NCBI GenBank assembly: GCA_039593355.1
Contig: JBCNPK010000011.1
Location: 25,039-89,038 of the forward strand
Source: Pseudoduganella sp.
GTDB taxonomy: Bacteria; Pseudomonadota; Gammaproteobacteria; Burkholderiales; Burkholderiaceae_D
Length of the DNA stretch: 64,000 nt
Reading direction: 5' to 3'
Made by a program: the position numbers and the translations under genes. The notes beneath the pieces were generated by a model that saw only the letters and a program-made list of their open reading frames with translations, did not search any database and was not told the origin of the DNA. Numbering within the stretch: the first letter of the stretch is position 1; each line of letters opens with the position of its first letter. Positions 9,620-63,925 of this stretch are shown piece by piece.

Positions 9620-9620
9620 T

Positions 9621-10739: not shown

Positions 10740-10766
10740 CTGGAATTCAGGGCCTTTATTGACTGA

Positions 10767-10794
10767 TTGTCACCGGGCGCGTCCATCGTATAAT
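10767..10794 (+). promoter_or_regulatory. candidate sigma70 promoter for the 10823 ORF
   Basis: TTGTCA (10767-10772), a 16-nt spacer, then TATAAT (10789-10794). The -10 ends 29 nt upstream of ATG 10823. Confidence 0.35.
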
Positions 10795-10822
10795 CAGGCA
10801 CGAACTTTAATTCAAACAGCTC

Positions 10823-11137
10823 ATGAGCGATAACAGTGTCCTGGGGATTTACACCTTCGAAGGCATTTTCGAAGGGAAGGCGGTGTATGAATACGCATAC
10901 CCGCAAGAGCATGCGCTGCACAAGTGCATGCTGTTCCTGCTGCAGGAAGGGACGGATGCCCTGTGGGACGCGGCGATTATCGAATGCGCCAAATTCGGTT
11001 TCGAGAACGTGGCGATGGACACCTTCAGTATCCTGCAGACCGACATGCTGGAAAAAGCGCCTTTCAAGGACCTGCACGCCCACATCGAAGAAGCCCTGAC
11101 CTTCGGCAGTTCCCTGGTCTTCTACGCCAAGCCTTGA
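10823..11137 (+). CDS. hypothetical cytoplasmic protein (104 aa)
   Basis: Clean ORF with a protein-like composition (MSDNSVLGIYTFEGIFEGKAVYEYAYPQEHALHK...). It has a promoter-like element upstream, and its stop overlaps the TTG start of the next gene. I recognise no family. Confidence 0.5.
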   Translation: MSDNSVLGIYTFEGIFEGKAVYEYAYPQEHALHKCMLFLLQEGTDALWDAAIIECAKFGFENVAMDTFSILQTDMLEKAPFKDLHAHIEEALTFGSSLVFYAKP

Positions 11138-11823
11138 GCTCTTTCCAGCAGTATGGTTTCGAAAAAATCCCTGGGTTGCTCGCAGCCGCCCAGTGCGCGC
11201 AGATAATCGGGCAGCTCCCTTCCATCAGCGGTCCTGGCTCGCGCGCACTACTTGCTCAATCGTGGTGCGCAGGCTTGGCAAGGCAACTCCTCGTTGCCGA
11301 TGCGCTGGCCGGCGTTCTCCCCGCCGGCCATGTCGCCGTGCAGTGCACCCTCTTTGAAAAATCGGAGTCCGTCAATTGGCTGGTGCCCGTGCACCAGGAC
11401 TTGAGCATTCCTGTACGTGAGCGCACCGATGGAGAAGGCCTGCGTGGCTGGTCGCTGAAGGAGGATGGCTGGTACGTTCAGCCTCCGCTAGCGCTGCTGG
11501 AGCATATGATCGCCGTGCGCGTCCACCTGGACGATTGCGGCGAAGACGATGGACCGATTTATGTAGTGCCAGGCTCGCACAGTCAAGGCATCATTAGTGC
11601 GCGTGAGGCGTCCGCGATGCGTGGCAGCGAGCAGGCCTGTTTTGCGAACGCTGGCGATGCCCTCGTCATGCGGCCATTGCTGTTGCATCGCTCTTCCAAG
11701 TCCACTGGCGCCAGTAGGCGCCGAGTGCTGCACTTCCTTTTTGGCCCAGCTAGCATGCCGCAAGGTATAGAATGGCGGGAGCAGGAAGGAGTTTGCCATG
11801 AAAGTTGTCGCCACAATAATTAG
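11134..11823 (+). CDS. phytanoyl-CoA dioxygenase (PhyH) family Fe(II)/2-oxoglutarate oxygenase
   Basis: The real part of track ORF 10924..11823. The N-terminus (TTG)SSFQQYGFEKIPGLL is typical of PhyH. There is an HxD motif in VPVHQDLS and a distal His in LLLHRSSKS. TTG 11134 is in frame and overlaps the upstream TGA (TTGA). Confidence 0.6.
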   Translation: MSSFQQYGFEKIPGLLAAAQCAQIIGQLPSISGPGSRALLAQSWCAGLARQLLVADALAGVLPAGHVAVQCTLFEKSESVNWLVPVHQDLSIPVRERTDGEGLRGWSLKEDGWYVQPPLALLEHMIAVRVHLDDCGEDDGPIYVVPGSHSQGIISAREASAMRGSEQACFANAGDALVMRPLLLHRSSKSTGASRRRVLHFLFGPASMPQGIEWREQEGVCHESCRHNN

Positions 11824-12274
11824 CTTGGTGTTATGCCAGGCCGCGCTGGCCGGGACCAATGCTTTGTCGCCATCTGACGAAGCCGCCGCATTCAAGGCGG
11901 CCGGATTCAAACAACACGGCAAGCAGTGGAAGGCATGCAAGGATGCTAGCGCCAGCTATGTGCCCGGGGCGATCGAACAAGTCCAGGACATCAATGGCGA
12001 CGGGCGTCCCGAGGCGGTCATCACCGAAGGCAGCACCGCCTGTTTTGGCGACACCGGTGTGGGCTACACCCTGGTCAGCAAACAGGCTGACGGCAGCTGG
12101 GAAGTCATGTCGCGCGGCGTCGGCATCCTGATCGTTCAAAAGACCAAAGGCAAAGACGGTTGGCCCGACCTCGAAATCGGCGGCCCCGGCTTCTGCTTCC
12201 CCATCGAACGCTGGAACGGCAGCGAATACAAGGTCATCGGAAAGCAATACGAAGGCAAACCCTGCAAGCGTTAA
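11798..12274 (+). CDS. secreted hypothetical protein (signal peptide, FG-GAP/VCBS-like DINGDG motif)
   Basis: The signal peptide MKVVATIISLVLCQAALAG is followed by a soluble 140-aa domain containing DINGDGRPEAVI. Confidence 0.6.
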   Translation: MKVVATIISLVLCQAALAGTNALSPSDEAAAFKAAGFKQHGKQWKACKDASASYVPGAIEQVQDINGDGRPEAVITEGSTACFGDTGVGYTLVSKQADGSWEVMSRGVGILIVQKTKGKDGWPDLEIGGPGFCFPIERWNGSEYKVIGKQYEGKPCKR

Positions 12275-49436: not shown

Positions 49437-50209
49437 CCGTGGCGAGTTTGCGCCAACCGCGGCGTCGGCGCCTGCTGGCCGGTTTGGCCGCCATGCTGGC
49501 GCTGGCCACGGTTCCGCTGCGGGCCAGCAGGCTGCGCCCCTTGCGGGCAGTGGCGCTGGCCATCGTCCCCTATGGGAAGCTGGAAGCCAACGGCCACAAG
49601 TCGGGGCTGTTTGTCGAGGCGTTCGAATTGCTCGAGCGCGTGTCGGGCCGCCATATCGAAGTCACGGTCGCGCCGTATGCCCGCGCCATCGCGATGCTGC
49701 GCTCGGGCGAGGCCGACTTGATGATCGCCACGTCCAACCCGCTCATCGCGGAAGCGGCCGAACCGATGGGCATGCTTTGGGCGGCCGATGTCATCGCGAT
49801 CGCGCGGCAAGGCGTCAAGCTCGAAGGCCAGGAGGATTTGCGGGGACGCACGGTCGGCATGCTGCGCGGATCGGATTACGGCGCCGCATTCCTGGACGAT
49901 GCGGAATACCGCCGGCATGAGATCACCGACCAGGTGCAGGGCGTGCGCATGCTTCTTGAGGGGCGGCTCGACGCCACGCTGGGAACGCGCCTGGCGGTGT
50001 TCCATGCCATGCGCCTGCTGGGCGTGCCGCGCGCGCGGCTCGGAACTTCGATCTCCGTGCAGGCGCGCGAAATCCACCTCCACCTTGGCCGCCGCAGCGC
50101 CGACGATGCGCTGGAAACCCAACTGCGGCAAGCGGTCCAGGAGATGCGCAGCAGCGGCAAGGCCGAAGCTTTGCTGGCTAAATACCTGGCCGGGCTGCCC
50201 TTGGCCTGA
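49433..50209 (+). CDS. periplasmic substrate-binding domain protein (SBP family 3-like)
   Basis: Arg-rich signal (RQPRRRRLLAGLAAMLALA) plus an SBP_bac_3-like body (PYARAIAMLRSGEADLMI...). The TTG start overlaps the GST stop. No cognate permease is adjacent on this strand. Confidence 0.6.
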   Translation: MTVASLRQPRRRRLLAGLAAMLALATVPLRASRLRPLRAVALAIVPYGKLEANGHKSGLFVEAFELLERVSGRHIEVTVAPYARAIAMLRSGEADLMIATSNPLIAEAAEPMGMLWAADVIAIARQGVKLEGQEDLRGRTVGMLRGSDYGAAFLDDAEYRRHEITDQVQGVRMLLEGRLDATLGTRLAVFHAMRLLGVPRARLGTSISVQAREIHLHLGRRSADDALETQLRQAVQEMRSSGKAEALLAKYLAGLPLA

Positions 50210-51245
50210 GCCTTCCCACCATCCCGCTCGGGAAGAAGTAGATGGCGAGAATGAACAGTATGCCGAGCCACAACAGCCAGCGGTCCGGATGCAGGGCTGC
50301 CTGCAGCAATGGCAGGCCGGCCAGGCCGCCGGCGGCATGCGCCATCAACGATTTCAGGTAGTTGTTGGCCAGGATGAACAGCGCGGCGCCGATCACGGAG
50401 CCGTACATGGTGCCCATGCCGCCGATGACGACGATCAGCAGGATGTCGGTCATGACTTCGAAGCCAAGCGTGGTCCTGGGGCCGACATAGCGCAGCCACA
50501 GCGCCAACAGCGCTCCGGCCAGTGCGGCCGCCAGCGCCGCGATGCAGTTGGCGGCAATGCGGTACAGCACGGTGCGGTAGCCCAGGGCCTCGGCGCGGAA
50601 TTCGTTCTCGCGGATCGCCTGCAAAACGCGGCCGAACGGGGAATTGACCACCCGCAGCAGGGCCAGGAAAATCAGCGCGGCGCAGAAAAAGACGATGTAG
50701 TAGGTGAGTACCTTGCCGTCGACGATGCGGCCCATGAATTCGCCGAACTCGTTGGCGGGCGAGAGCAGCTCGGGTACGTCGAAAGTCTTGCCGTCTTCGC
50801 CGCCGGTCCAGCCGGACATCTGCGAGGCCAGCACCGCGAACGACGACGCCACCGCCAGCGTGATCATGGCGTAGAAGATGGCGCGCACGCGCAGCGCAAA
50901 CAGGCCGATGACGAAGGCCAGGGCCAGCGTCAGCACAAGTGCGGCGGCAAGCCCCAGCGCCATGCCGCTCCAGGTGGGGATGGGCTTGTCGAAGCCCAGG
51001 CCGACACCATAGGCGCCGATGCCAAAAAACATGGTGTGTGCGAAGGACACGATGCCGGTATAGCCTAGCAGCAGGTCGTAGGAGGCTACCAGCACGATGT
51101 AGATGCAGATGGTGGCGGCCGTGTTCAGCGGCCGTACTCCGGTGGTGATGAAGGGCGCGAGCGCAAGGCCCAGCAGCACCAGCAGGAGCAGTGCGGACAG
51201 GGCGCGGCTGCGCGGCAGGTCGCCGGAAAGCAGGGTATTCAGCAT
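50178..51245 (-). CDS. branched-chain amino acid (HAAT/Liv-type) ABC transporter permease, LivM-like
   Basis: 355-aa polytopic ORF with LivM-like LLGYTGIVSFAHTMFFGIGAY. It is the last gene of the minus-strand ABC operon. Confidence 0.85.
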   Translation of the reverse strand: MLNTLLSGDLPRSRALSALLLLVLLGLALAPFITTGVRPLNTAATICIYIVLVASYDLLLGYTGIVSFAHTMFFGIGAYGVGLGFDKPIPTWSGMALGLAAALVLTLALAFVIGLFALRVRAIFYAMITLAVASSFAVLASQMSGWTGGEDGKTFDVPELLSPANEFGEFMGRIVDGKVLTYYIVFFCAALIFLALLRVVNSPFGRVLQAIRENEFRAEALGYRTVLYRIAANCIAALAAALAGALLALWLRYVGPRTTLGFEVMTDILLIVVIGGMGTMYGSVIGAALFILANNYLKSLMAHAAGGLAGLPLLQAALHPDRWLLWLGILFILAIYFFPSGMVGRLRPRAARPGI

Positions 51246-51246
51246 T

Positions 51247-52236
51247 TCATTTCCTCGACAGGCCGGCGGGGCGCCACAGCAGGATGGCGATCATCAGCAC
51301 GATATGGGACACCAGCGCGAGTTTCGGCGCCAGGAAGCCGGCGTAATTGGCGCTCAGCGCCATCAGCAGCGCGCCGATGAAACAGCCGCCCACCGAACCG
51401 AGGCCGCCGATGATGACGGTGATGAAGACCATGACCATCACTTCGCCGCCCATCGATGCAGTCAGGGTTTCCTTGTAAAGTCCCCACATCACGCCGCCCA
51501 GCCCGGCCAGCGCGGAGCCGGCGGCGAATACCGCCACGAACAGGCGGCGGATGCGGTAGCCGAGCGCTTCCACCATTTCGCCGTTTTCGACGCCGGCGCG
51601 TATCAGCAGGCCAAGCTTGGTGCGGCTCAGCAGCAGGGTGAGGCCGATGAACACCAGCAGGCCGACCACCACCGCCAGCAAGCGGTATTTCTCGATGGCC
51701 GCGTCGCCCAGCACAATGGCGCCGCGCAGGGCCGTCGGCAGCGGCATCGGCTGCTGTTCGGCGCCCCAGATGACCTGGATCAATTGTTCGACCACGATCA
51801 TGCCGCCCATCGTGATCAGGATCTGTTTCAGGTGCTGGCCGTAGACGGGCATGATGACCAAGCGCTCGAACAGCCAGCCAAGCAGCGCCGTCACCGCCAT
51901 CGCCAGCGCGATCGCCAGCCCGAGCGCGGCCAGGTTCATGCCGAGGGAATCGGCTTCCATCCAGCCACGCATCGGCAGCAGGACCAGGGTCGCGGCGAAG
52001 GCGCCGACGGAGACAAAGGCGCCGTGGCCGAAGTTCAGTACGTCCATCAGCCCGAATACCAGCGTCAGGCCGCTGGACATGATGAAGATCATCATCCCCA
52101 TCGCCAGGCCTGCCACGGTCAGGGTGACCCAGGTCGGCATGCTGCCGACCAGGGGCAGCATGGCCAGCATCAGTGCCGGCACCAGCAGCGTTGGCAGGTA
52201 GTCCTTCGGGACGGTGGGCAGTGCAGTGTCGCTCAC
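51247..52236 (-). CDS. Liv-type ABC transporter permease, LivH-like
   Basis: 329 aa; the LTLVFGLMDVLNFGHGAF motif is typical of LivH. Confidence 0.85.
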   Translation of the reverse strand: MSDTALPTVPKDYLPTLLVPALMLAMLPLVGSMPTWVTLTVAGLAMGMMIFIMSSGLTLVFGLMDVLNFGHGAFVSVGAFAATLVLLPMRGWMEADSLGMNLAALGLAIALAMAVTALLGWLFERLVIMPVYGQHLKQILITMGGMIVVEQLIQVIWGAEQQPMPLPTALRGAIVLGDAAIEKYRLLAVVVGLLVFIGLTLLLSRTKLGLLIRAGVENGEMVEALGYRIRRLFVAVFAAGSALAGLGGVMWGLYKETLTASMGGEVMVMVFITVIIGGLGSVGGCFIGALLMALSANYAGFLAPKLALVSHIVLMIAILLWRPAGLSRK

Positions 52237-52245
52237 TGTCGCTCC

Positions 52246-52968
52246 TTATTGATGTGAGTCCAGGGCCAGGCCAAGCAGGCGTTCCTGAAGGGCGCGATCG
52301 CTTGCCAGTTCGGCCATGGCGCCGCTGTGAACGATGCGGCCGTCGTCCATCACGGCCACGGTATCGCCCAGCTGGCGCACGAAGTTGAAGTTCTGCTCCA
52401 CCAGCAGCACCGTGCTCTGGCCTTTAAGCTGGCGGATGGCGTCGGCCAGGCTCTGGATGATGGCCGGCGCCAGGCCCTTGGTCGGTTCGTCGATCAGCAG
52501 CAGCTGGCGCGGCTCGATGATGGCGCGTGCAATGGCGACCATCTGCTTCTGGCCGCCCGACAGGTTGCCGGCCGGGTAGTTCCAGAACTTCTTCAGCGCC
52601 GGGAAGAAGGAGAAGATCCATTCCAGGCGCGCCGTGTCCATTGGGCCGCTGCGGGCAGCAAGGTGCAGGTTCTCGCGCACGGTCAGGCCGCTGAATACGG
52701 CCATCGATTCGGGCACGTAGGCGATGCCTGCCTGCGCAATATCCGGCGTGCGCAGCCCGCCGATGTCGCGGCCGTTGAATTCGACCCTGCCGGCGCTGGC
52801 CTGCCACAAGCCCATGATGGTGCGCAGGGTGGTGCTCTTGCCGGCGCCATTGCGCCCCAGCAGGACTGTCAGGCCGCCGCGCGGCACCTCCAGGTCGACC
52901 CCTTGCAGGATGTGGTATTCGCCGATGTGCGTATGCACACCGGTGAGCTTGAGCAGGGCGTCAGTCAT
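52246..52968 (-). CDS. Liv-type ABC transporter ATP-binding protein, LivF-like
   Basis: Start at ATG 52968 (8-nt overlap with the upstream gene). Walker A GRNGAGKST, signature LSGGQKQMVAIA, Walker B LLLIDEP. Confidence 0.85.
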   Translation of the reverse strand: MTDALLKLTGVHTHIGEYHILQGVDLEVPRGGLTVLLGRNGAGKSTTLRTIMGLWQASAGRVEFNGRDIGGLRTPDIAQAGIAYVPESMAVFSGLTVRENLHLAARSGPMDTARLEWIFSFFPALKKFWNYPAGNLSGGQKQMVAIARAIIEPRQLLLIDEPTKGLAPAIIQSLADAIRQLKGQSTVLLVEQNFNFVRQLGDTVAVMDDGRIVHSGAMAELASDRALQERLLGLALDSHQ

Positions 52969-53719
52969 GGCTTGCGGTTCCCAGGTAGGCTTCCTGCACG
53001 ATGGCGGAGGACATGACGGCGGCGGGTTCGCCATCCGCCACCAGCGCGCCGTTGTGCAGCACGATGATGCGGTCGGCCAGCGCGCGAACGACGTCCATTT
53101 TGTGTTCCACCAGCAGGACCGCCTTGTTGCGCTCCGCCTTGACCTGGTGGATCAGTTCCAAGACCACCGGTACTTCGTCCACGCTCATGCCGGCGGTCGG
53201 CTCGTCGAACATCATCACGTCGGGCTCCAGGGCCAGCATGATGGCCACCTCCAGCTTGCGCTTGTCGCCGTGCGGCAGGGCTGCCACCAGCATATCGCGC
53301 CGCCCGGCCAGCGCCACGCGCTGCAGGTAGTGGTCGGCGCGTTCGATCAGGTCCTTGTGGCTGGACCAGATCGTCCACAGCTTCATGCCCGCGTTGGCGC
53401 GCGCCTGCACCGCCAGCCGCACGTTTTCGTGCACGGTCAGATGGGGGAACAGGTTGGTCAGCTGGAAGGCGCGGCCGATTCCCTTGCGGGTGCGGCTTGC
53501 CGGGCCGTTGCGGGTGATGTCTTCGCCGCGCAGCAGCACTTGTCCGCTGGTGGCGGGCAGCTGGCCGGACACCAGGTTGAAATAGGTGGTCTTGCCGGCG
53601 CCGTTGGGGCCGACGATCACCGTCAGCTGGCCGGCATGGAAATCGGCGCTGACGTTGTCGACGGCCGTGTGGCCGCCGAAGCGAATGGTCAGCCCGCGTG
53701 TGGACAGCAATGGAGTCAT
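52961..53719 (-). CDS. Liv-type ABC transporter ATP-binding protein, LivG-like
   Basis: Walker A GPNGAGKTT, FQLTNLFPHLTVHENV, and PHGDKRKLEVA in place of the LSGG signature, as in LivG. Confidence 0.85.
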   Translation of the reverse strand: MTPLLSTRGLTIRFGGHTAVDNVSADFHAGQLTVIVGPNGAGKTTYFNLVSGQLPATSGQVLLRGEDITRNGPASRTRKGIGRAFQLTNLFPHLTVHENVRLAVQARANAGMKLWTIWSSHKDLIERADHYLQRVALAGRRDMLVAALPHGDKRKLEVAIMLALEPDVMMFDEPTAGMSVDEVPVVLELIHQVKAERNKAVLLVEHKMDVVRALADRIIVLHNGALVADGEPAAVMSSAIVQEAYLGTASHD

Positions 53720-53723
53720 CGGT

Positions 53724-54893
53724 TCAGCGCCTGTTCCTGATCGGTACGGGCAGCTCGGAGGCCGGGATTTCGCGCACCAGCTCGAGCAGGTCCCATTCGC
53801 TTTTCTGGTCCTTCTTGATGCGGAAGTGGTACATCGGCTGCATGGCCTGGTGGTCTTGCTTGCGGAAGCGCATTTTTCCTTTCGGCGTGTCGAATTCCAT
53901 GCCCTCCATGGCGGCGATCATCTTCTGGGTGTTGCCGCCGCCGGTCCTGGCGAGGGCGGTGTAGACGGCGCTGGCCGCCGTGAAGCCGCCGGCTGTGAAC
54001 ATGTCCGGCGGTTTGTTGTAGCGCTTCATGTGCTCGGCCACGAACCAGTCGTTCATGACGTTCCTGGGGAAGCCGTAGTAGTAATAGATCGTCCCTTCGG
54101 TGCCGGCGAAGGCTTTCCATGTTTTCAGCACCGGCAGGATATTGCCGCCCGGGGCCAGCGTGATGCCATACCGTTCCGGCTTCATGTCGGCGATCTTGTT
54201 CATGGGGTTGGGTCCGGCCCAGATGATCTGCAGCACGCGCGGCGGCGGCGCGTCCTTCAGCTTGTCGAACAGGCGCTGGGCCGAGGCGGTGAAGTCGGTC
54301 GCGTTCTGCGGCGCGTATTCCTCGTGCACGACGTTGGCTTTGGAGCCGGTCAGCCTGAGCGCCTCGCGCGCGGCGGCCACGGCGTCCTTGCCGAAAGCGT
54401 AGTCCTGCGCCAGGAAGGCCACGCTGCCTTGCTTGAAGGTGGAGGCGGCCGCCAGGCCATCCTGCATGGAATTGCGGGCAGTGCGGAAGATGTACTTGTT
54501 CCACTTGGCGCCCGTGATCGCGTCGGCCACGGCCGGCTCGACAAGCAGTATTTTCTTGTATTCCGCCGCGATGGGCAGCATGGCGATAGCCGAGCCGGAG
54601 GAAGTGGTGCCGACCGCGATGTCGACCTTGTCGTCCTCGTAGGCTTCGGCCAGCAGGGCGCGGCCCTGGTCAGGCTTGCTCTGGTCGTCCTTGACGATGA
54701 CCTTCAGCTTGCGGCCGTTGATTTCCATCTTGCCGCCGGTGAGGTATTCAAGGCCCATCATGAATCCGGTCTCGGTTTCCCTTGCGTAGGGTTCGAGGAT
54801 GCCGGTCTTGCCGGCGATGAGCGCAACCTTCAGGTCCTGGGCCGCGGCCAGCGTGCAGGCCAGCGCAAGCACCAGGGGCAACAGTTTTCTCAT
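53724..54893 (-). CDS. Liv-type periplasmic substrate-binding protein
   Basis: Start at ATG 54893. Signal MRKLLPLVLALACTLAAAQ followed by a Peripla_BP_6-like body (LKVALIAGKTGILEPY...). The ligand cannot be inferred. Confidence 0.8.
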   Translation of the reverse strand: MRKLLPLVLALACTLAAAQDLKVALIAGKTGILEPYARETETGFMMGLEYLTGGKMEINGRKLKVIVKDDQSKPDQGRALLAEAYEDDKVDIAVGTTSSGSAIAMLPIAAEYKKILLVEPAVADAITGAKWNKYIFRTARNSMQDGLAAASTFKQGSVAFLAQDYAFGKDAVAAAREALRLTGSKANVVHEEYAPQNATDFTASAQRLFDKLKDAPPPRVLQIIWAGPNPMNKIADMKPERYGITLAPGGNILPVLKTWKAFAGTEGTIYYYYGFPRNVMNDWFVAEHMKRYNKPPDMFTAGGFTAASAVYTALARTGGGNTQKMIAAMEGMEFDTPKGKMRFRKQDHQAMQPMYHFRIKKDQKSEWDLLELVREIPASELPVPIRNRR

Positions 54894-54894
54894 A

Positions 54895-55761
54895 TCAGTC
54901 AACGCTATCGAGGAAGCTGCGCAGCGCTTCCTGCGCTGCTGGTTCGGACAGCATCGGCGCATGGCCGACATCGGGTACCTCAGCATACAGCATGCCCGGC
55001 GCGGCGGCGCGCATGGCGTTCGCCTGGGCCGGCTCGATCAGGTCCGATAGTGCGCCGCGTATCAGCATGGTCGGGCGGCGCCGCGCCAGGCGGCGGAAAG
55101 CGAAGTGCGCCGCCATCGACGTGGAGCGCAGCTTGTTGGCGCGGATCGGCACGGCGATGTTCGGGTCGTAGCGCATGGCCAGCGTGCCATCGCTTTGCTC
55201 GCGGAAGGCGCGGTGCGCCCAGCGCGCCCATTCCTGCGCCGTGTTGGCGGGAAAGGCGACGCTGTTGATGCTGCTGATGTAGTCGGCGGCCTGCTGCCAG
55301 CTGGTGAACTGCTCGCCCTTGCCGGTATAGCTGCGAATGCGCGACAGTCCGCGTTCGGACAAGGTCGGGCCCACGTCATTCAGGACGGCGGCGGCGACCA
55401 GGCTGGATTTGCGCAGGGCCAGGGTCATGGTGATCAGGCCGCCCATCGAGGTGCCGATGAAGACGGCACGCTCGATGCCCAGGTCGTTCGCCAACTTGAC
55501 CACGTCGTTGGCGTACACCATGGTGGTGTAGTGCTCCGGCTTGCGATCGTATTCGGAATTGCCGCGGCCCCGCACGTCGACGGCGATCACGCGGCGGCCC
55601 TGCGCGGCGAGCCATGGCGCGACGTCCTCAAAGTCGGCGGAGTTGCGCGTCAGGCCGTGGATGCAGATCACGGGCAGGCGCGCCGGTCCGCTGGCGGCGG
55701 GATAGTCGCGTGCATAAAGGCGCAGGCCATCGTCGCTGGTGTAGCTGATCTCGGAATACAT
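54895..55761 (-). CDS. alpha/beta hydrolase, first gene of the ABC operon
   Basis: Start at ATG 55761. Contains PVICIHGLTRNSADF and the nucleophile elbow GTSMGG. Its stop lies 1 nt before the binding-protein ATG (TGATATG). Confidence 0.8.
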   Translation of the reverse strand: MYSEISYTSDDGLRLYARDYPAASGPARLPVICIHGLTRNSADFEDVAPWLAAQGRRVIAVDVRGRGNSEYDRKPEHYTTMVYANDVVKLANDLGIERAVFIGTSMGGLITMTLALRKSSLVAAAVLNDVGPTLSERGLSRIRSYTGKGEQFTSWQQAADYISSINSVAFPANTAQEWARWAHRAFREQSDGTLAMRYDPNIAVPIRANKLRSTSMAAHFAFRRLARRRPTMLIRGALSDLIEPAQANAMRAAAPGMLYAEVPDVGHAPMLSEPAAQEALRSFLDSVD

Positions 55762-55898: not shown

Positions 55899-56801
55899 AT
55901 GAAAACACTGCCCGAATGGACCGACCTGCGCTTCTTCCTGGAGCTGGCGCGCTCCGGTACCCTGTCCGGCGCCTCGCGCCGGCTGGAAGTGGAGCACACC
56001 ACCGTATCGCGCCGTATCGACCGCCTGGAGCAGCAGCTGGGCGCCACCCTGTTCGACCGCTCGCGCGAGGGGTATGAGCTGACGGAGATGGGGCACGCGG
56101 TGCTGCCGCACGCGGAGGCGATGGAAAGCGCCGTGCTGGCGGCCCAGGGCCAGTTATCCGGCACCGAGGTCGCCATCCGCGGCGTGGTGCGCCTTGGCGT
56201 GCCGGAAGCGCTGGGCGTGCGTTTCATCACGCCGTTGCTGGCGCAATTCCTGCAGGATTATCCCGAACTTTCGGTCGACCTGCTGGTGCAGCCGCGCTTT
56301 GCCAACCTGGCCAGCCGCGAGGCCGACCTGGGCGTGACGCTGGATGCGCCCAACACGGGCCGCTACATGGTCACGCGGCTGACGTCCTTCCGGCTTTACG
56401 TGTACGGCTCGCCGGACTACCTGGCGCGGCACGCGCCGATCCTGAAGCGCAGCGACCTGGCGGGCCACGATTTCGTCGACTACGTGCAGGACCGCCTGGC
56501 CAGCAACGAGCTGAACTTCCTCGATGAACTGGGGGTCAATCCGCGCCGCCGCCTGTGCTGCACCGGCATGCTGGCGCAGGCCGAGGCGGCGGCGGCGGGC
56601 CTGGGACTGATGATGGCGCCGCCCTACATGGCGACCGATGGCCGCCTGGTGCCGGTGCTGCAGGATGAAGTCTTCGTGGAGCGCGCCTACTGGCTGGTGG
56701 CCCCGGTCGACTTGTACAGGCTGCCCCGTGTGCGCGCCGTCTGGAACCTGCTGCGCCAGTTCGCCGAATCGCGCTCCAGCCTGTTTATTTCGAATAAGTG
56801 A
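55899..56801 (+). CDS. LysR family transcriptional regulator
   Basis: N-terminal HTH LRFFLELARSGTLSGASRRLEVEHTTVSRRIDRLEQQLG plus a LysR substrate-binding domain. It is divergent from the hydrolase-ABC operon. Confidence 0.85.
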   Translation: MKTLPEWTDLRFFLELARSGTLSGASRRLEVEHTTVSRRIDRLEQQLGATLFDRSREGYELTEMGHAVLPHAEAMESAVLAAQGQLSGTEVAIRGVVRLGVPEALGVRFITPLLAQFLQDYPELSVDLLVQPRFANLASREADLGVTLDAPNTGRYMVTRLTSFRLYVYGSPDYLARHAPILKRSDLAGHDFVDYVQDRLASNELNFLDELGVNPRRRLCCTGMLAQAEAAAAGLGLMMAPPYMATDGRLVPVLQDEVFVERAYWLVAPVDLYRLPRVRAVWNLLRQFAESRSSLFISNK

Positions 56802-57295
56802 GGCAGGTCGGCGCCGATATCGATCCGGTGCAGTTCCGGCGCGGCGGTGTCGGGCAGGGCCGCACCGGTCGCCAGCGCGTGCAGGATGGGCGCGGGGTCG
56901 TAGCTCCAGTCCACACAGTAGCGGCAAGGGTCGCCGTCGCGCACCTTCATCAGCGCCAGTTCGAACTGCGACACCGAGACGACCAGCGGATCGTCATGCC
57001 CGGCCAGGAATTCGAGGAAGGCCAGCGGCTGATATTCGCGGAAAGGCGAGATATTCTGCTCCCGTATGAACGCTTCCAGCGCTTCGTCCAGCAGCGCGCC
57101 CTGGCGCAGCAACTCCACCGTCAGCACGCAGGTGCGCTCGAGGACGTAATACCGCCACAGGTGGACGTTGCCGCGCGCTTCCTTCAGGTCGACCGAGGTG
57201 GCCACGCGATGGTAATACGGCGCATCGTCGGCGCCAGGCTGGTAGGTGTCGCGCATCAGGCCAAGCAGGATGCGCTGGTGGTTGCCAAGGTCCAT
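56687..57295 (-). CDS. MNIO partner protein, DUF2063-like (family assignment tentative)
   Basis: ATG 57295 is preceded by a GGAGG embedded in the last codons of the DUF692 gene. It has a DUF2063-like pattern: LWRYYVLERTCVLTVELL...ISPFREYQPLAFLEFLAGHDDPLVVSVSQFELALMKV. Its 3' end overlaps the convergent LysR gene by 115 nt. Confidence 0.6.
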   Translation of the reverse strand: MDLGNHQRILLGLMRDTYQPGADDAPYYHRVATSVDLKEARGNVHLWRYYVLERTCVLTVELLRQGALLDEALEAFIREQNISPFREYQPLAFLEFLAGHDDPLVVSVSQFELALMKVRDGDPCRYCVDWSYDPAPILHALATGAALPDTAAPELHRIDIGADLPHLFEINRLERDSANWRSRFQTARTRGSLYKSTGATSQ

Positions 57296-57297
57296 TC

Positions 57298-58179
57298 TTA
57301 CCTCCATTCGCGTTGCCGCATCTGCCGCAAGGTGTCGGCGATGGCGGCGTGACCCAGGCCGGGAACGGCTTCGGGCATGAATTCGTACACGATCGCTTCC
57401 GCCTCGGTGGCGATGTCGCGCAGCACCTGCTGCGCCAGGTCCATGGTGCAGGGGCGCGGCAAGCGCGAATGCACGTCCAGCATCAGGCCATTGTGCTGCA
57501 CCCCGCAGGCCACGTGCAGCTCGCGCACGTGGCTGCCGTCCAGCTCCGCCAGGAAAGCCTGGATGTCGAGCGCATGGTTGTGCTCATCGCATTCGAGGTT
57601 GTAGACGTCCAGGATCAAGCCGCAGCCGCTGTCGGCCGCGATGGCGTTGAGAAAGCCGGCGTCGCTGTAGTCGGCCGGGCAGTCGGGCACCACGTGCACG
57701 ATGTTCTCCAGCAGGAAGGGCAGGCCGTAGCGCTGCTGCAGGCACCAGGCCCGCTGCGCCACCAGTTCGGCCGCCTGCTCGGTGCGCGGCATGGCCAACA
57801 TGATGCCGAGGTGCTCACCATCGACCCGCGTGTAGCCCAGATGCTCGCTGTGCCAGCGTACGCGCACCTGGTCCATCAGATCGTCCAGCAGGCGCAGGTA
57901 GGTTGGCGACCAGCCGTCGTGCGAACCGATGGACAGGCTGACGCCGTGCACCACGATGGTTTTGTCGCGGTCGATGTTCTTCAATTCGGAAACGATGGCC
58001 GGGTCCAGGAAGATCCGCTCACCATCGGCGATCGACATGGTCTCCGGGGTCACCTCGATGATGTCCGCGTGTGGCAGCATCATTTCCAGCAACACCGGAT
58101 CGCGTCCCTCGTAGCTGACGCCCACACCCGGTTGCGGGCGTGGGTCGGCAGACAACAATTTAGCCGAAGACGGTTTCAT
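57298..58179 (-). CDS. DUF692 family multinuclear non-heme iron-dependent oxidative enzyme (MNIO; MbnB/TglH/BufB superfamily)
   Basis: 293 aa with DUF692 blocks: GVGVSYEG, VVHGVSLSIGS, RWHSEHLGY, PFLLENIV, GLILDVYNLECDEHNH and RELHVACG. Confidence 0.8.
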   Translation of the reverse strand: MKPSSAKLLSADPRPQPGVGVSYEGRDPVLLEMMLPHADIIEVTPETMSIADGERIFLDPAIVSELKNIDRDKTIVVHGVSLSIGSHDGWSPTYLRLLDDLMDQVRVRWHSEHLGYTRVDGEHLGIMLAMPRTEQAAELVAQRAWCLQQRYGLPFLLENIVHVVPDCPADYSDAGFLNAIAADSGCGLILDVYNLECDEHNHALDIQAFLAELDGSHVRELHVACGVQHNGLMLDVHSRLPRPCTMDLAQQVLRDIATEAEAIVYEFMPEAVPGLGHAAIADTLRQMRQREWR

Positions 58180-58423
58180 GCTGGATTACCGCGCCTTCGA
58201 TATGCGGCACCTCGCGCAGCACGCGGCCGATGGCCGGATCGCCCCGCAGGAAACTCAGGTCGAAACCTGTCAGGCCGCAGTTGCAGCCACCCTTGGGCAC
58301 CATCTGGGCCACGGCGATATCGAGGGCCCGGTGCAATTCTTCCAGGGTGACCTTGCCTTCGCTGACGACGATCTTGATGTGGTTATTCTTGGTTTGGGTA
58401 TGGCGCATGCTCAGTTCTTCCAT
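58160..58423 (-). CDS. small Cys-containing protein, candidate MNIO substrate/precursor (87 aa)
   Basis: GGAG lies 6 nt upstream of ATG 58423. MEELSMRHTQTKNNHIKIVVSEGKVTLEELHRALDIAVAQMVPKGGCNCGLTGFDLSFLRGDPAIGRVLREVPHIEGAVIQHETVFG. It has no signal peptide. The MNIO ATG lies inside its last 7 codons. Confidence 0.55.
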   Translation of the reverse strand: MEELSMRHTQTKNNHIKIVVSEGKVTLEELHRALDIAVAQMVPKGGCNCGLTGFDLSFLRGDPAIGRVLREVPHIEGAVIQHETVFG

Positions 58424-58574
58424 GACGTTCTCCAGTTGGTCCGTTGGTGAACAAGGGCGGGTGGGCTGGACCAGGCGGTAAACCGCGCCCCGGGGCTTTG
58501 CATGGGTGTCACTTTATGCCCCCGGAGTGCGTGGCGAATTGGTACTGGCACCCAGATTCCGGGCCGCCCAGCAC

Positions 58575-61217
58575 CTAGTTTTTATGCAGTGAAGCGGGCG
58601 GGCGGCGCAGCAGGTCGATGCGGGTGCTGGCCCCCATCTTGCCGAGCAGGGTGGAAACGTGGTGTTCGACCGTACGTTCGGAACGGCACAGGCGCTGGGC
58701 GATTTCGAGGTTGCTGAGGCCTTCCAGCAGCAATTCCAGCACCTGGGCTTCGCGGCGCGTCAGGCCGCTCGGGTGTTCGCGCGCTGCCGCGTAGGGGCCG
58801 CGGCGCGGTTTGGGCAACTGGGCTTGCGCGCCGCAGTCCCGCGCCCGTTGGCGCGCCATGGCAGCCGCCGGGGCCGCGCCGATCTGCTCCAGCAGGGCGA
58901 CGGCTTTCGGCATGGCCTGCGCCGCCGCGTCGCCCGGAATGTCGAGCAGGGCCAGCGCCGCCTCGAAGGGTAGTCCCAGGGCCAGCCACGCGTCGCAGGC
59001 AGCCTGGCCGCGCCCGGACAATTCGGCGGCGCGCGGAGGTGGTGGCGGATGTTCGCATTCCGGCAGGAGCGCCACCGAGGCACGGCGCTGCCAGGAGCAG
59101 ACTTCGGCCAGGTCCCAGGCATTCACGCCCGAAAAGTCGAATTGGGCGGCCTCGTCCAGCCAACGGCGGCAGCCATCGATGTCCTGCGCCTGCCACGCCG
59201 CTTCGACCATGGCCAGCAACACCGGCAGCAGACGTTGCGATTCGCCGGTGGCGCGCGCCCATTGCAAGGCTTCCTGAAGGCAGCGCGGCGCTTCCGCATC
59301 GCCCTGGCGCGACAGTGTGCGGCCCAGCACCGTCAGCGCCGGCAGGCGCATCACGAGGCTCAGGTCGGGCAGGGCGAGGACCTGGCGCGCCAGCGCGGCC
59401 GCCGCGGCGAATTCGCCCTTGTCGAGGTGGAGCTGCGCCTGCCAGCCGGTCAGGTAATGCACCCAGGCGTCCAGCTCATGTTCGCGGTGATAGGCCAGGC
59501 CTTCGGCCAGCAGGCGCCCGGCCAGTGCAAACTGTTTGAACACGACGGCATATTCGACCCAGTTGCTGTAAATGCGCGCCGCGTGTTCGTGCAGGTGCTG
59601 CGCCAGCGCGCATTGCAGGCCCTCCCCGAGTTCCCGCTGGCCGCTCGCATCGCCCAGGAACAGCTTGGCGCTGCCGATATTGGTGAGGGCATGCACCCGC
59701 GTGTCATGGTCGTCCAGTGTAGTCGCCAGCTCCAGCGCGAGGCGGCCCCATTCGATGGCGGAAGCCGGATGGTTCTGCAGCAGCTGGTGCTGGGAGCGCA
59801 TGCTGTACGCCATGGCCAGCTCCTTGCTGTTGGGGAGCTGCTCGAGCGTGTGGATCGCTTCCAGGCCGTAGTGCTCCGCCTCTCTCGATTCGCCGCGGTA
59901 CCAATAGGTGCGCGCCAGCCAGCGCAGGTTCAGCCCGACCTTATCCGGCCGGTCCACGCTCTGCCAGAGCGCGATGGCTTGCTTGCGCGCCTCGATCAGG
60001 CGCTCGTCGATGCGCAACAGGCCCGCCTCGTAGGCCCAGTCTTCATAAAGCTGGGCGGCTTCCCCGGTCCAGCTGACGGCATCCACGAACTGCAGGGCGC
60101 TGGCCAGGTGGGCCGCCGCCTGGCGGTGGGCGCCAAGCCGCGCGGCCTGGCGCGCCGCGCGCGGCGCCAGTTGCAGCACCATGTGCGCATCCTGCGCCCC
60201 GGTGGCGTGGTGCACCAGGCGCGCCAGTTCCACCTTTGCATGGCTGGGCGCCTGTTCGGTCAGCGCCTTGCACAGGCGCTTGTGCAGGGCGCGCGAAGCG
60301 GCAGGGCGCAGCCCGTTCAGCACTGCCTGGCGCGCCAGCTCGTGACGGAACGACAGGTTGCCGGGGCTGGCCCGCTGCAGCAGGCCGCTATCGACGCTGC
60401 CGTCGATGGCGTCATGACCATGGTCGCCCAGCAGGGCTTCCAGCAGCCATTCTTCCAGCGCGACGGGACTGACGCTGACCAGTTCCAGCACAGTGCGCAC
60501 CGGCGCCGCCAGGCGCGACATGCGCGCCCACACCGCGTCGCGCACCGAAGCCGGCAAGTGGCCGGGCGTACTGTCGCAATCCGCCAACAGTTCGGACAGG
60601 AAGAATGGATTGCCGCCGGTGACGCGGTATAGCTCCACGGGATCGCAGGGCGCGTTGCGCGCAAGCGTGGCGACGGCTTGCGGCGACAGCGGCGGCAGGG
60701 CGATGCGCTGGGTGCTGGCGGCAGGCAAGTCGCCGGCCCAGCGCCAGAAGGCATGGTCGGGCGGCAGTTCATCATTGCGCACGCTGGCCAGCAGCAGGAT
60801 GCGCTGGCTTGAAATCCGCCGCGCCAGGTATTTGAGCAGGTCAAGCGTGGCCTGGTCGGCCCAGTGCAAGTCTTCGCACAGCACCAGGACGGGACGCTGC
60901 TGCGACGCCAGGCGGCCCAGCAGCAAGGGCATCAGCTGGTCGGCGCTGGCGGCATTGTCGATGGCGCAGACGATGTCCTGGCCGAGTTCGTGGGCGAAGT
61001 CGCGCAGGGGGCCGAGGACGCGCGGTGTGGACAGGTCTTCACAGGCGCCTTGCAGGACCAGGAAGCGGTCGCGCAGCGGCGCAGCAAAGGCTTGCAGCAA
61101 GGAAGATTTGCCAATGCCGGCTTCGCCCAGCACAAGCGCCATGCCGCCCACGCCGGAGCCGGCACGGCTGGCAAGCCGCTGAAGTATGTCCAACTCCCTT
61201 TCGCGCTCGAGCAGCAT
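58575..61217 (-). CDS. LAL-type LuxR family regulator (AAA ATPase - TPR-like - LuxR HTH)
   Basis: 880 aa. N-terminal P-loop GEAGIGKSSLL, a long helical repeat region, and a C-terminal LuxR HTH LTRREAQVLELLLEGLSNLEIAQRLCRSERTVEHHVSTLLGKMG. Confidence 0.85.
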   Translation of the reverse strand: MLLERERELDILQRLASRAGSGVGGMALVLGEAGIGKSSLLQAFAAPLRDRFLVLQGACEDLSTPRVLGPLRDFAHELGQDIVCAIDNAASADQLMPLLLGRLASQQRPVLVLCEDLHWADQATLDLLKYLARRISSQRILLLASVRNDELPPDHAFWRWAGDLPAASTQRIALPPLSPQAVATLARNAPCDPVELYRVTGGNPFFLSELLADCDSTPGHLPASVRDAVWARMSRLAAPVRTVLELVSVSPVALEEWLLEALLGDHGHDAIDGSVDSGLLQRASPGNLSFRHELARQAVLNGLRPAASRALHKRLCKALTEQAPSHAKVELARLVHHATGAQDAHMVLQLAPRAARQAARLGAHRQAAAHLASALQFVDAVSWTGEAAQLYEDWAYEAGLLRIDERLIEARKQAIALWQSVDRPDKVGLNLRWLARTYWYRGESREAEHYGLEAIHTLEQLPNSKELAMAYSMRSQHQLLQNHPASAIEWGRLALELATTLDDHDTRVHALTNIGSAKLFLGDASGQRELGEGLQCALAQHLHEHAARIYSNWVEYAVVFKQFALAGRLLAEGLAYHREHELDAWVHYLTGWQAQLHLDKGEFAAAAALARQVLALPDLSLVMRLPALTVLGRTLSRQGDAEAPRCLQEALQWARATGESQRLLPVLLAMVEAAWQAQDIDGCRRWLDEAAQFDFSGVNAWDLAEVCSWQRRASVALLPECEHPPPPPRAAELSGRGQAACDAWLALGLPFEAALALLDIPGDAAAQAMPKAVALLEQIGAAPAAAMARQRARDCGAQAQLPKPRRGPYAAAREHPSGLTRREAQVLELLLEGLSNLEIAQRLCRSERTVEHHVSTLLGKMGASTRIDLLRRPPASLHKN

Positions 61218-61291
61218 CTGGCTCTCCTCACTGCCATCATAAGCCTGTCAGCGCGAAAAAAATCTCACCAATCGTAACGAATATTGGGGGT

Positions 61292-61357
61292 CTTGAAAAA
61301 GGGGACGTAACACATTTTTCAACCCATGGAAAAATGTGTTACGTCCCCTTTTTCAAG
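61292..61357. repeat. 66-bp palindrome with the AAAAAGGGGACGTA core; terminator-like element between the receptor and the LuxR gene
   Basis: CTTGAAAAAGGGGACGTAACACATTTTTC-AACCCATG-GAAAAATGTGTTACGTCCCCTTTTTCAAG. It has the same core as 42359-42423 but a different centre. Confidence 0.8.
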
Positions 61358-61372
61358 GCCCCGAATTTCCTT

Positions 61373-63709
61373 TTAGAACTTGTACGAGGCGGTGAGCTTG
61401 TAGGTGCGCGGGTCGCCGTAGTAGGTGGTGACGGTGTTGAAGAAGCCGCCGAAGGCGTAGCCCGCTACCTTGTAGCGCTTGTCCGTCAGGTTGCGGCCGT
61501 GCAGGCCGATCTGCAGGCGTCGGTCGGCGCTGGTCCATACCAGGCCGGCGTCCCACAGCGTGAAGCCGCCCTGGGCCAGCATCAGGTTCTGCGGTACCAG
61601 GGCATCCATCGATGCGACGCCGGTCGGGCGCACGATTTCGGCCTGGTACACCTTGTCCTTGTAGGACAGGCTGGGGTTGAAACTCATGCTGCCGCCGCGG
61701 CCGAACAGGGTGACCGGCCATTCGTAGGTGGCGCCCAGGTTGGCGGACTTCTTCGGCGTGTTCTGGAATTCGGCGCTCTTGGCGACGTTGATCAGGCTGG
61801 CGCCGCTGGCGACCATCCATTCCTTGTATTCGGCGTCGATGTAGCTCAGCATGCCGTTCAGGGACAGGCCCTCGGTCACGCGGGCAAGCACTTCCAGTTC
61901 CACGCCTTTGATCTTGGCTTTGCCGGCGTTGGTCAGGGTGCCGGCGAAGCCGTTCACCTGACCTTGCGCATTGAAAGTGGGGATCGAACCGGGGATCTGC
62001 ACGTTCTTGTAGTCGGTGTAGAACACGGCCGCGTTGGTTTGCAGCCGGCCGCCGTTGAGCGAGGATTTCAGGCCCAGTTCGACCGAATCGACTTCCTCGG
62101 GATTGACACCCTTGCGTTTCTCCAGCGAGGCTGGGGTGTTCGGGCCACCGGTTGCCGCCAGGTCCATGCGCGGGTCGAACATGCCACCCTTGAAGCCGCT
62201 CTGGTAGCTGCCGTACAGGTTATGTTCCGGCGAGATCTTCCAGCCGAAGCCCAGCTTCGGCGTGAATTTCCTGTCCTTGCGCTGCAGGTCGTTCTTGCTC
62301 ATATCGGTGTTGGGCGCGAGGCCGACGGCGGCCGGGTTGCCCAGGTTCGGCGAGCCGGCCAGGCCGAGATAGGTGCGCTTGTAGATGGCCGCTTCGCGCT
62401 CGTCGTCGGTCCAGCGGCCGCCCACGCTCACGCTGAAGGCGTCGGTGACGTTGTAGCTGGCGTCGGCGTAGACCGCCCAGGTCTTGGAGTCGATGTCGTC
62501 GCGCGTCAGCAGGGAGAAGCCGGTGCCGGCGCCGTACAGCACGTCGAATTCGTTGAAGGCATTGGTCTTCATGTAGAACAGGCCGGCCACGCCCTGCCAT
62601 TTGGAACCGGTATAGGTGAACTGGAATTCCTGGCTGTCCTGCTTGTCGCTGTAAATGGCCGGGGCTTCCCACAGCGGGGTGTTCAGCGAGTCGAAGTCGA
62701 TCGGGGCGTAGGATTTGGACGAGCGGTGTGCCGTCACCGACTTGAATACCGTCTCGGGCGTAATGTTGTAATCGATGGTCAGCGAGGCGCCCTTGGTGGT
62801 CACTTGCTGGTCATGGCCATTGACCTTGTACAGGTTGGCGCGCGTGTCGTAGGAGCCGTCCAGCGGTGGCAGGTTGGCCGGCGCCGGGCCGTTCAGCAGG
62901 CGGTAGCCTTGCTTCGGTTCGGAATCGTCCTTCGTGTAGTCGGCGGCGAGGCGGATGAACAGGTCGGTGCTCGGCACCAGTTCGGCGCTGACACGCGCCG
63001 CGGCCACGTCCTTGTTGTAGTTCTCGCGGCCATTGACGACATTCTTGCCGAAGCCGTCGCGGTTGAAGGTGCCGACCGTGGCGCCGACGCGCAGGATGTC
63101 GCTGAGCGGGGTGCTGCCTTTCAGGACCAGGTCGTGCTGCTTGTAGTTGCCCAGCGTACCCTTGATTTCCAAGGTCGGGTTGGGGGAAAGCTTGCGGGTG
63201 ACGTATTTGACGGCACCGCCGATGGTGTTGCGCCCGTACAGGGTGCCTTGCGGTCCGCGCAGCACTTCGATGCGTTCCAGGTCGTAGATGTCGGTCAGCG
63301 CGCCTTGCGGGCGGGCGAGGTAGACGTCGTCCAGGTAGATGCCGACGCCTTGCTCGTAGCCAGCCACCGGGTCTTGCTGGCCGATGCCGCGAATGAAGGC
63401 GGTCAGTGTGGTGTTGGTGCCGCGCGAGGCTTTGAGCGTGGTGTTCGGCACGATATCGGTCAGCGCGGTGATGTCCGGGAGGGCCTGTTTTTCCAGCTGG
63501 GCGCCGGACAGTGCGGTCACCGCGCCCGGCACGTCCTGAATCAGCTCCGCGCGTTTGCGGGCAGTGACGATGACACGGTCGATTGCGCCTTCAGCTTTCT
63601 CCCCGTCGGCCGTTTGCGCCAGTACTGGATGGGCGTACATGGCGGGAAGGGTCATCATGACGGCAGCCACGGAGCGGCGCAGCATGAAAGTGGTATTCGA
63701 CACACGCAT
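61373..63709 (-). CDS. TonB-dependent receptor
   Basis: Start at ATG 63709 (GAGGAG upstream). Signal MRVSNTTFMLRRSVAAVMMTLPAMYAHPVLAQ, plug domain (IDRVIVTARKR..., IEVLRGPQGTLYGRNTIGG), a beta-barrel, and a C-terminal YKF aromatic terminus. Confidence 0.85.
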   Translation of the reverse strand: MRVSNTTFMLRRSVAAVMMTLPAMYAHPVLAQTADGEKAEGAIDRVIVTARKRAELIQDVPGAVTALSGAQLEKQALPDITALTDIVPNTTLKASRGTNTTLTAFIRGIGQQDPVAGYEQGVGIYLDDVYLARPQGALTDIYDLERIEVLRGPQGTLYGRNTIGGAVKYVTRKLSPNPTLEIKGTLGNYKQHDLVLKGSTPLSDILRVGATVGTFNRDGFGKNVVNGRENYNKDVAAARVSAELVPSTDLFIRLAADYTKDDSEPKQGYRLLNGPAPANLPPLDGSYDTRANLYKVNGHDQQVTTKGASLTIDYNITPETVFKSVTAHRSSKSYAPIDFDSLNTPLWEAPAIYSDKQDSQEFQFTYTGSKWQGVAGLFYMKTNAFNEFDVLYGAGTGFSLLTRDDIDSKTWAVYADASYNVTDAFSVSVGGRWTDDEREAAIYKRTYLGLAGSPNLGNPAAVGLAPNTDMSKNDLQRKDRKFTPKLGFGWKISPEHNLYGSYQSGFKGGMFDPRMDLAATGGPNTPASLEKRKGVNPEEVDSVELGLKSSLNGGRLQTNAAVFYTDYKNVQIPGSIPTFNAQGQVNGFAGTLTNAGKAKIKGVELEVLARVTEGLSLNGMLSYIDAEYKEWMVASGASLINVAKSAEFQNTPKKSANLGATYEWPVTLFGRGGSMSFNPSLSYKDKVYQAEIVRPTGVASMDALVPQNLMLAQGGFTLWDAGLVWTSADRRLQIGLHGRNLTDKRYKVAGYAFGGFFNTVTTYYGDPRTYKLTASYKF

Positions 63710-63741
63710 CAAAGTCTCCTCAGGTTTTGTTATGCGAGGAG

Positions 63742-63805
63742 TGTGCATGTTTTGCCAACTGTGCGAAACTGACAGTACTGCACTCACGTTGTGCAATTTT
63801 GCACA
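63742..63805. promoter_or_regulatory. second copy of the TGTGCAATTTTGCACA operator architecture, upstream of the TonB-dependent receptor
   Basis: An identical 16-mer lies at 63790-63805, and the imperfect copy TGTGCATGTTTTGCCA at 63742-63757. The start-to-start spacing is 48 bp, as at 55795/55843. Confidence 0.6.
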
Positions 63806-63925
63806 CGATGGCGAGTAGTGATATTTCGATTTCACGATGATCTAGTCCTTGCTGATATAGCTTTGTTATAGCGCGTGGCTTGTTTGATAAGCTCGGGAAA
63901 TTACTGCTATGTCATAGAGGATCGG

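Follow-up and report, generated by a model that had tools for sequence, protein, structure and literature searches.

MNIO (DUF692) enzymes are a fast-growing family in which most characterised members have revealed a different chemistry, and MbnB, TglH and ChrH carry out very different reactions on cysteine (PMC10214503). Their known substrates are mostly Sec-exported proteins and leader-bearing peptides. The closest described relatives of the system considered here come from an analysis of small MNIO sequence clusters (Antoine et al. 2025, Microb Genom 11:001462, PMC12452194), where the proteins encoded beside cluster #1 are called 'adjamnio-1' and the modelled representative is WP_073215760 of Massilia sp. 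CF038. That survey describes adjamnio-1 proteins as probable new precursors with Cys motifs, no Sec signals and PME-type 2 partners. Here we analyse a stretch of 64,000 nucleotides from Pseudoduganella sp. (contig JBCNPK010000011.1, hereafter the window) in which a gene for an 87-aa protein, assigned by sequence to adjamnio-1, is followed on the minus strand by an MNIO gene and by the gene of a partner protein. We propose, with a rough probability of 65 %, that the MNIO-partner pair takes the 87-aa product as its substrate and modifies it at the Cys pair C47/C49. The cassette has the following features:

58160..58423, minus strand: adjamnio-1 small-protein gene, 87 aa, putative MNIO substrate (open reading frame (ORF), homologues and codon-position pattern)
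58430..58433, minus strand: GGAG ribosome-binding site, with a 6-base spacer to the ATG at 58423 (direct reading)
58259..58291, minus strand: invariant loop G45-G-C47-N-C49-G-L-T-G-F-D55, proposed modification site (alignment of 120 sequences)
58304..58387, minus strand: residues 13-40, conserved strand-turn-helix (NHIKIVVSEGKVTLEELHRALDIAVAQ), proposed partner docking region (conservation and model)
57298..58179, minus strand: MNIO (DUF692) enzyme, 293 aa (PF05114, E 5.6e-44)
56687..57307, minus strand: partner, 206 aa, TglI-like ('PME-type 2') (AlphaFold model and fold match)

An exact-sequence look-up traced WP_073215760.1 to the 87-aa protein encoded at L015:5983-6243, one of the loci described below. 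The window protein shares 73 % identity with it, belongs to the same family search and has the same three-gene arrangement, while the MNIO of the window is 69 % identical to that of Massilia sp. CF038. Judged by sequence, the window protein is an orthologue within adjamnio-1, a family already named bioinformatically. The position upstream of the MNIO gene, the lack of a Sec signal, the Cys motif and the PME-type 2 partner are all shared, with no difference in kind. An earlier reading of the window from its letters (the original prediction) had implied that the family was new, which does not stand given its publication as adjamnio-1 (PMC12452194). Full-text literature, with most subscription journals outside the coverage, yielded no experimental work on the family. 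What we add is the strict autonomy of the cassette, which the accessible part of the survey does not report, a CxC/CxxC superfamily with members bearing twin-arginine (Tat)-like signals, and the TglI-like fold of the partner. As the literature has drawn attention to the family before, the value lies in a better-defined experiment and not in discovery. The cassette is small and autonomous, lies outside all characterised subfamilies and occurs in soil bacteria from many phyla, which makes it a clean experimental target.

Among characterised systems, the cassette resembles those of the bufferins, oxazolins and captophorins (BufABC, HvfABC and FonABC) in being a minimal precursor-MNIO-partner unit with a small protein as substrate. 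In these systems, Cys of small proteins or peptides that bind copper becomes 5-thiooxazole, and the target Cys is followed by Gly, as is C49 here. FonB, a Cys-to-thiooxazole enzyme, favours a small residue after the Cys; the captophorin sites are KCG, and the minimal fon system consists of precursor, enzyme and partner (PMC13097082). However, in BufABC, HvfABC and FonABC the precursor has a Sec signal and the partner has DUF2063 (PME-type 1), neither of which is found in the cassette of the window, where a single CNC site is combined with a TglI-like partner and an enzyme far below the BufB and HvfB cut-offs.

Another likeness is to TglHI-TglA (3-thiaglutamate/pearlin), given that the partner fold is close to TglI, the substrate has no signal peptide and TglH is the second-best solved relative of the enzyme. 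TglH acts on a C-terminal Cys that a PEARL enzyme adds. In the window protein, by contrast, both Cys are internal (47 and 49 of 87) and the chain terminates with VFG. The cassette has no further conserved gene and thus no conserved PEARL gene; a pearlin-like carrier peptide was rejected for lack of both C-terminal Cys and a PEARL gene. ChrHI-ChrA (chryseobasin) is similar in having two close Cys (CPACGMG), both required for the MNIO reaction (PMC10214503). It differs in that ChrI is an integral membrane protein, ChrH is S-adenosylmethionine-dependent and the ChrA motif is C-terminal, and the window enzyme reaches 44 bits against a ChrH cut-off of 600. The methanobactin system MbnABC differs as well, with 35 bits for the window enzyme against 325 for MbnB and no MbnC match for the partner.

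The small gene is genuine and more than a chance ORF, because its product has 174 homologues at E<=0.01 and because substitutions relative to 12 close relatives are distributed 71/25/207 over codon positions 1/2/3. The description of this gene in the original prediction is borne out. The ORF has a good GGAG and is coupled to the MNIO gene, its final 20 nt overlapping the first ATG of that gene, and the quoted sequence contains exactly two Cys, C47 and C49, within the Gly-flanked GGCNCG (CNC codons at 58277-58285). Direct reading of the first 30 residues (MEELSMRHTQTKNNHIK), with no signal-peptide predictor applied, revealed no hydrophobic stretch.

On the opposite strand, the plus-strand ORFs 58178..58450 (90 aa) and 58230..58481 over the small gene are shadows of GC-rich DNA (64 % GC). 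The long plus-strand frames at 57313-58350 (345 aa, opposite the MNIO gene) and 61025-63772 (915 aa, opposite a TonB-dependent receptor gene) are likewise shadows and not genes. Such frames could mislead ORF-based annotation.

To place the cassette in its genomic context, we scanned one genome per species and obtained 35 loci, distributed over Oxalobacteraceae (Massilia, Duganella, Pseudoduganella and Telluria), Ramlibacter, Caulobacterales, a number of lineages in Acidobacteriota, Gemmatimonadaceae, Candidatus Udaeobacter and Candidatus Tumulicola, and covering Burkholderiales, Caulobacterales, Acidobacteriota, Gemmatimonadota, Verrucomicrobiota and Eremiobacterota. An orthologous MNIO gene (59-93 % identity) stands immediately downstream of the small gene in 35/35 loci. 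The partner gene is present in 34 of them, the one exception being cut off by a contig end, and the small gene is single-copy at every locus. The coupling that the original prediction had seen in the window is therefore general, with an MNIO gene downstream of every homologue whose context is readable.

Additional cassettes in Bryobacteraceae and Cupriavidus have unrelated flanks in Pfam-annotated neighbourhoods. Three protein families recur among the 21 more distant loci, namely the small protein, the MNIO and the partner; the remaining clusters there are antisense shadow ORFs or are common to near relatives only. Because the flanks share nothing else between distant loci, the conserved unit is a self-contained three-gene cassette without a dedicated protease or exporter. 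A six-frame comparison of the loci revealed no conserved small ORF within 2 kb on either side, and no recurrent peptidase or ABC exporter stands beside the cassette in the Pfam-annotated neighbourhoods. A search of the window showed no MNIO, precursor copy or partner beyond those of the cassette. Scanning the surroundings of the cassette for promoter and terminator consensus sequences gave no match.

We favour the small protein as the substrate because the three-gene linkage is strict across phyla and because no other candidate substrate is encoded nearby; the other grounds, developed below, are that its two Cys are invariant, that the Cys loop is flexible in the model and that the partner is TglI-like, of the recruiting type. 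Antoine et al. independently arrived at a 'putative precursor' assignment (PMC12452194). Alternatively, the small protein could be an accessory metalloprotein whose CxC/CxxC knuckle binds Fe, Zn or Cu (for example as a 2+2 Cys dimer) and which acts as metal donor, redox partner or scaffold for the MNIO, the true substrate being encoded elsewhere. The absence of both protease and exporter near the cassette would suit such a role. Yet no alternative conserved candidate substrate lies near any locus, and no dedicated metal donor is described in the MNIO literature that we compared, where fon is minimal with three components (PMC13097082). We consider an accessory metalloprotein unlikely, and further evidence on both sides comes from the sequence and the model of the protein itself.

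In the core-family alignment, which comprises 120 homologues of the window protein, GGCNCGLTGFD (45-55) is unchanged throughout. H15, V20, V25, T26, L30, H31, L34 and F58 are also invariant and R60, G61, D62 and P63 nearly so, with variation in about 11 N-terminal and about 6 C-terminal residues. When 1.84 billion representative proteins were searched exhaustively with a profile, only 40 representatives matched, and the family is therefore small and tight. When distant relatives are included in a superfamily alignment, the sole invariant columns are C47, C49, G50 and G53, while G46, L51, D55, G61 and P63 are kept in at least 90 %. In both alignments it is the Cys pair and its flanks that form the invariant part, which answers the question that the original prediction had raised.

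Motifs were counted over 208 retrieved family members. C-x(1,2)-C-G-[LM]-x-G is kept in 203 of them, and the 5 exceptions appear to be fragments or frameshifted calls. CNCGLTG is found in 175 members and CxxC in 27, and 196 have exactly two Cys. Asn48 is retained in 175 of the 176 CxC members, and the residues between the Cys vary in the CxxC relatives. The alignments indicate that the whole domain of about 70 residues is conserved and not a Cys core alone.

Such conservation of a whole domain with regular secondary structure would be expected of an accessory metalloprotein, and H15 and H31, both unchanged throughout the core family, might supply the two His of a 2His/2Cys site. However, H15 and H31 are lost in the distant relatives, so that there is no four-ligand set across the superfamily, and the interchange of CNC and CxxC spacings would be unexpected for one fixed metal geometry. 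The resemblance of the partner to TglI, which recruits a peptide substrate, also argues against this role.

We modelled the small protein as a single chain with AlphaFold2 from the 120-sequence alignment. The model is weak, with a mean predicted local distance difference test score (pLDDT) of 55 and a predicted template modelling score (pTM) of 0.37. It consists of a strand (14-20), a helix (27-41), two short helices (56-59 and 63-69) and a second strand (75-82), of which the first strand and the first helix score best. The Cys loop is the least confident part, with pLDDT <50 at residues 45-47 and 49-53, and for this reason the Cys pair is not predicted to lie in a buried, confident metal or disulfide site of a stable fold. 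Pfam and NCBIfam scans of the 87-aa protein gave no match, a PDB sequence-profile search gave chance-level matches only (best E 0.17), and Foldseek with the weak model, which was expected to tell little, gave nothing better than E 0.78.

A rubredoxin-like or zinc-knuckle metalloprotein with four conserved ligands of one chain in a confidently folded site does not fit, given two Cys in 196/208 members, H15/H31 unconserved in distant relatives, a loop at pLDDT <50 and no PDB match. The original prediction had left two alternatives, a CNC modification site or a small structured accessory protein. The first is favoured by the invariant Cys, the MNIO linkage, the model and the absence of another ORF, and the second has lost ground.

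Distant relatives have the same layout, with C-x-x-C-G-[LM]-x-G-[FIL]-D in place of CNC. An MNIO gene lies directly downstream in 5/5 informative cases (P0264, P0277, P0280, P0287 and P0273), and these MNIOs are 40-58 % identical to the window enzyme. A partner homologue then follows where the contig extends far enough. P0267 was left out of this count as its contig stops at the gene. Five relatives (P0264, P0267, P0271, P0275 and P0280) have an N-terminal RR-x-F-F-K-type segment such as RRTFFK or RRSFFK, an Ala-rich hydrophobic stretch and an A-x-A site. These Tat-like segments score slightly under cut-off (16-20.6 bits against 22.7 for Pfam TAT_signal and 15.9-16.2 against 16.7 for TIGR01409) and lie N-terminal to the entire conserved domain in the superfamily alignment. 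At loci L040-L042 (5812-7751), Tat-like CxxC relatives are followed by an MNIO 58 % identical to that of the window. P0280 (187 aa; locus L043, 166-729) has two tandem CxxC domains after its Tat-like signal, and its short contig also includes, downstream, the beginning of an MNIO gene. Tat signals for MNIO substrates go unmentioned in the 2025 survey (PMC12452194). A superfamily-profile search returned core-family members for all of its best 120 matches, with no adjamnio-2 (Hahella) or adjamnio-7 (CxxC, Novilysobacter) organism among them.

The position of these signals bears on another explanation, namely that the protein is a classical leader/core precursor of a peptide made on the ribosome and modified after translation (RiPP). 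Residues 1-46 would then be a leader ending in a double glycine (K-G-G / C), and a protease or peptidase-exporter encoded at a distance would free a modified peptide of about 41 residues starting at C47. G45-G46 does stand directly before C47 and is invariant or nearly so, the N-terminal strand-helix region is conserved like a recognition leader and the partner is TglI-like. However, in none of the lineages is a peptidase or ABC exporter a conserved neighbour of the cassette, the stretch that follows the Cys pair (FDLSFLRGDP...IPNIQG) is conserved in the manner of a folded domain, and the Tat-like signal of the relatives precedes the whole domain, so that the 'leader' would be exported along with the 'core'. 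We regard this explanation as very unlikely.

The 'long follower region' of the original prediction is likewise the wrong picture, as about 70 residues are conserved as one domain and the Tat-like signal of relatives comes before all of it. Three features, namely a domain conserved throughout, a cassette with no conserved protease or exporter and Tat-like signals placed ahead of the full domain in relatives, make it probable that the mature product is not a cleaved secreted peptide but a small protein that carries the modification and is cytoplasmic in this organism.

The MNIO of the window falls under every named NCBIfam equivalog cut-off. The best named matches are BufB (131 bits against a cut-off of 310) and HvfB (114 against 360), with lower scores for ApyH (58 against 400), ChrH (44 against 600) and MbnB (35 against 325). 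The nearest solved structures are 3BWW (60 bits), TglH (46) and MbnB (25), in that order. Residues H78, H113, E158, D191, N194, H222, D235, H237 and E266 align with conserved His, Asp, Glu and Asn residues shared by those of the three structures with which they align, and we take these nine positions to be the iron-ligand set from what is known of MbnB and TglH. On sequence grounds, the enzyme looks competent and is placed in a separate subfamily, distinct from the named ones.

The partner has no Pfam match (E<=0.1) and no NCBIfam match, hence no DUF2063 or MbnC. This agrees with PME-type 2, whose partners have a DUF2063-like or TglI-like fold but lack the DUF2063 signature of Pfam. Its AlphaFold model is confident (pLDDT 86.7, pTM 0.79) and comprises a helical domain (7-123) and a small beta-alpha C-terminal domain with a strand-helix-strand-strand order (130-176). 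Foldseek against the PDB matched TglI of the TglHI complex (8hci_A; E 2.1e-3, probability 1.00, template modelling score 0.46, 225 columns), and all other fold matches have E>1. A PDB sequence-profile search with the partner alignment found nothing, so TglI is seen by fold comparison only. TglI and MbnC recognise substrate leaders through an antiparallel beta-sheet (PMC10214503).

The true start of the partner is likely M5 (57295). At its other end, the ORF overlaps the 3' end of a convergent LysR gene (55899..56801, plus strand) by 115 nt (56687-56801), and about 30 extra C-terminal residues with pLDDT around 50 are absent elsewhere (about 172-194 aa in 16 aligned partners of loci L015-L035). 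This tail looks like lineage-specific read-through and not a functional part.

If the small protein is the substrate, the partner would dock residues 13-40 (strand-helix) through beta-strand pairing, by analogy with the leader pairing of TglI and MbnC (PMC10214503). The flexible Gly-flanked C47-N-C49-G loop would be presented to the multi-iron centre, where a Cys thiolate would bind iron and O2-dependent oxidation would convert one Cys or both, the likelier target being C49, which always has Gly after it. The product would be a sulfur heterocycle (5-thiooxazole or oxazolone/thioamide) or the result of another rearrangement, creating an N,S metal-binding site. Our first guess, a tentative one by analogy, is that a four-electron oxidation yields an N,S chelator of the thiooxazole or oxazolone/thioamide type, because the nearest named enzymes make 5-thiooxazoles and because C49-Gly recalls the KCG of captophorins.

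A ChrH-like two-Cys rearrangement or a new reaction appears comparably likely. More broadly, and still with the small protein as the substrate, the chemistry may possibly not involve a heterocycle at all: a C47-C49 cross-link, a ChrH-like rearrangement, beta-carbon excision or a reaction at Asn48 are conceivable. The diversity of the MbnB, TglH and ChrH reactions, with ChrH using two nearby Cys (PMC10214503), is in line with this. So are the near-universal Asn48 of the CxC members, an enzyme under all equivalog cut-offs and a partner of TglI-like and not DUF2063 type. On the other hand, the residues between the Cys vary in the CxxC relatives, so that Asn is not essential across the superfamily, and the best sequence matches of the enzyme are BufB and HvfB.

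Several observations weigh against the small protein being the substrate, or against reading its chemistry from known enzymes. The low-confidence model neither proves nor excludes a fold, and the CPxCG-type motifs of the distant relatives resemble metal-binding knuckles; being rubredoxin-like, they would speak for the accessory metalloprotein. The small protein is also conserved over its full length, at a rate close to that of the MNIO (51-73 % against 59-72 % identity). Such a pattern is atypical of a leader/core peptide and is also compatible with a structural or accessory role. Lastly, with the enzyme below the cut-offs of all characterised families, chemistry is not transferable from them.

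A bolder scenario is conceivable, which we hold to be doubtful. A distinct MNIO clade and its TglI-like partner would install a protein-derived prosthetic group on a folded domain of about 70 residues, which would be cytoplasmic or, in relatives, Tat-exported in its folded state. The group could be a new cross-link between the two Cys, or a metal site formed by a heterocycle, at C-x(1,2)-C-G. If true, MNIO chemistry would serve cofactor-like protein maturation and not a secreted peptide natural product, possibly through a reaction type new to the family. Modification of the Cys pair, if it occurs, would add a cytoplasmic or Tat-exported class of small-protein substrates and possibly a new metal-binding group.

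Outside the cassette, the neighbouring genes in the window include:

58575..61217, minus strand: AAA_16-TPR-LuxR (STAND/MalT-like) regulator, just upstream of the cassette (Pfam)
61373..63835: TonB-dependent receptor, upstream of the cassette
55899..56801, plus strand: convergent LysR gene

The regulator, the TonB-dependent receptor, the LysR gene and an alpha/beta-hydrolase gene are syntenic only within loci L001-L014 (Massilia eburnea, Duganella and Pseudoduganella). The AAA_16-TPR-LuxR regulator is not found in L015-L035 and is lineage-specific context outside the conserved cassette. The distant cassette of L040 is also flanked by unrelated STAND-type regulators (AAA_35-TPR and BTAD-AAA_16-TPR; 2883-5390 and 8970-12092). 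Regulators of this type near cassettes may be a coincidence or a recurrent regulatory mode.

In some distant cassettes, unannotated genes come right after the partner gene: one of 252 aa in L040 (7896-8654; also in L041 and L042), and two of 217 and 139 aa in L036 (10104-11136). These extra genes are not common across lineages. At L023 (6001-7760; Massilia sp. H-1, CP087969.1), the match to the small protein runs no further than residue 65, and both the MNIO gene and the partner gene are broken into two ORFs. The cassette there looks degraded, either because it is pseudogenised or because of assembly indel errors. Elsewhere in the window, the minus strand at 50178-54986 carries what we judge by eye from the translations to be an ABC transporter operon of the branched-chain amino-acid type, with two permeases, two ATPases and a periplasmic binding protein, seemingly unrelated to the cassette.

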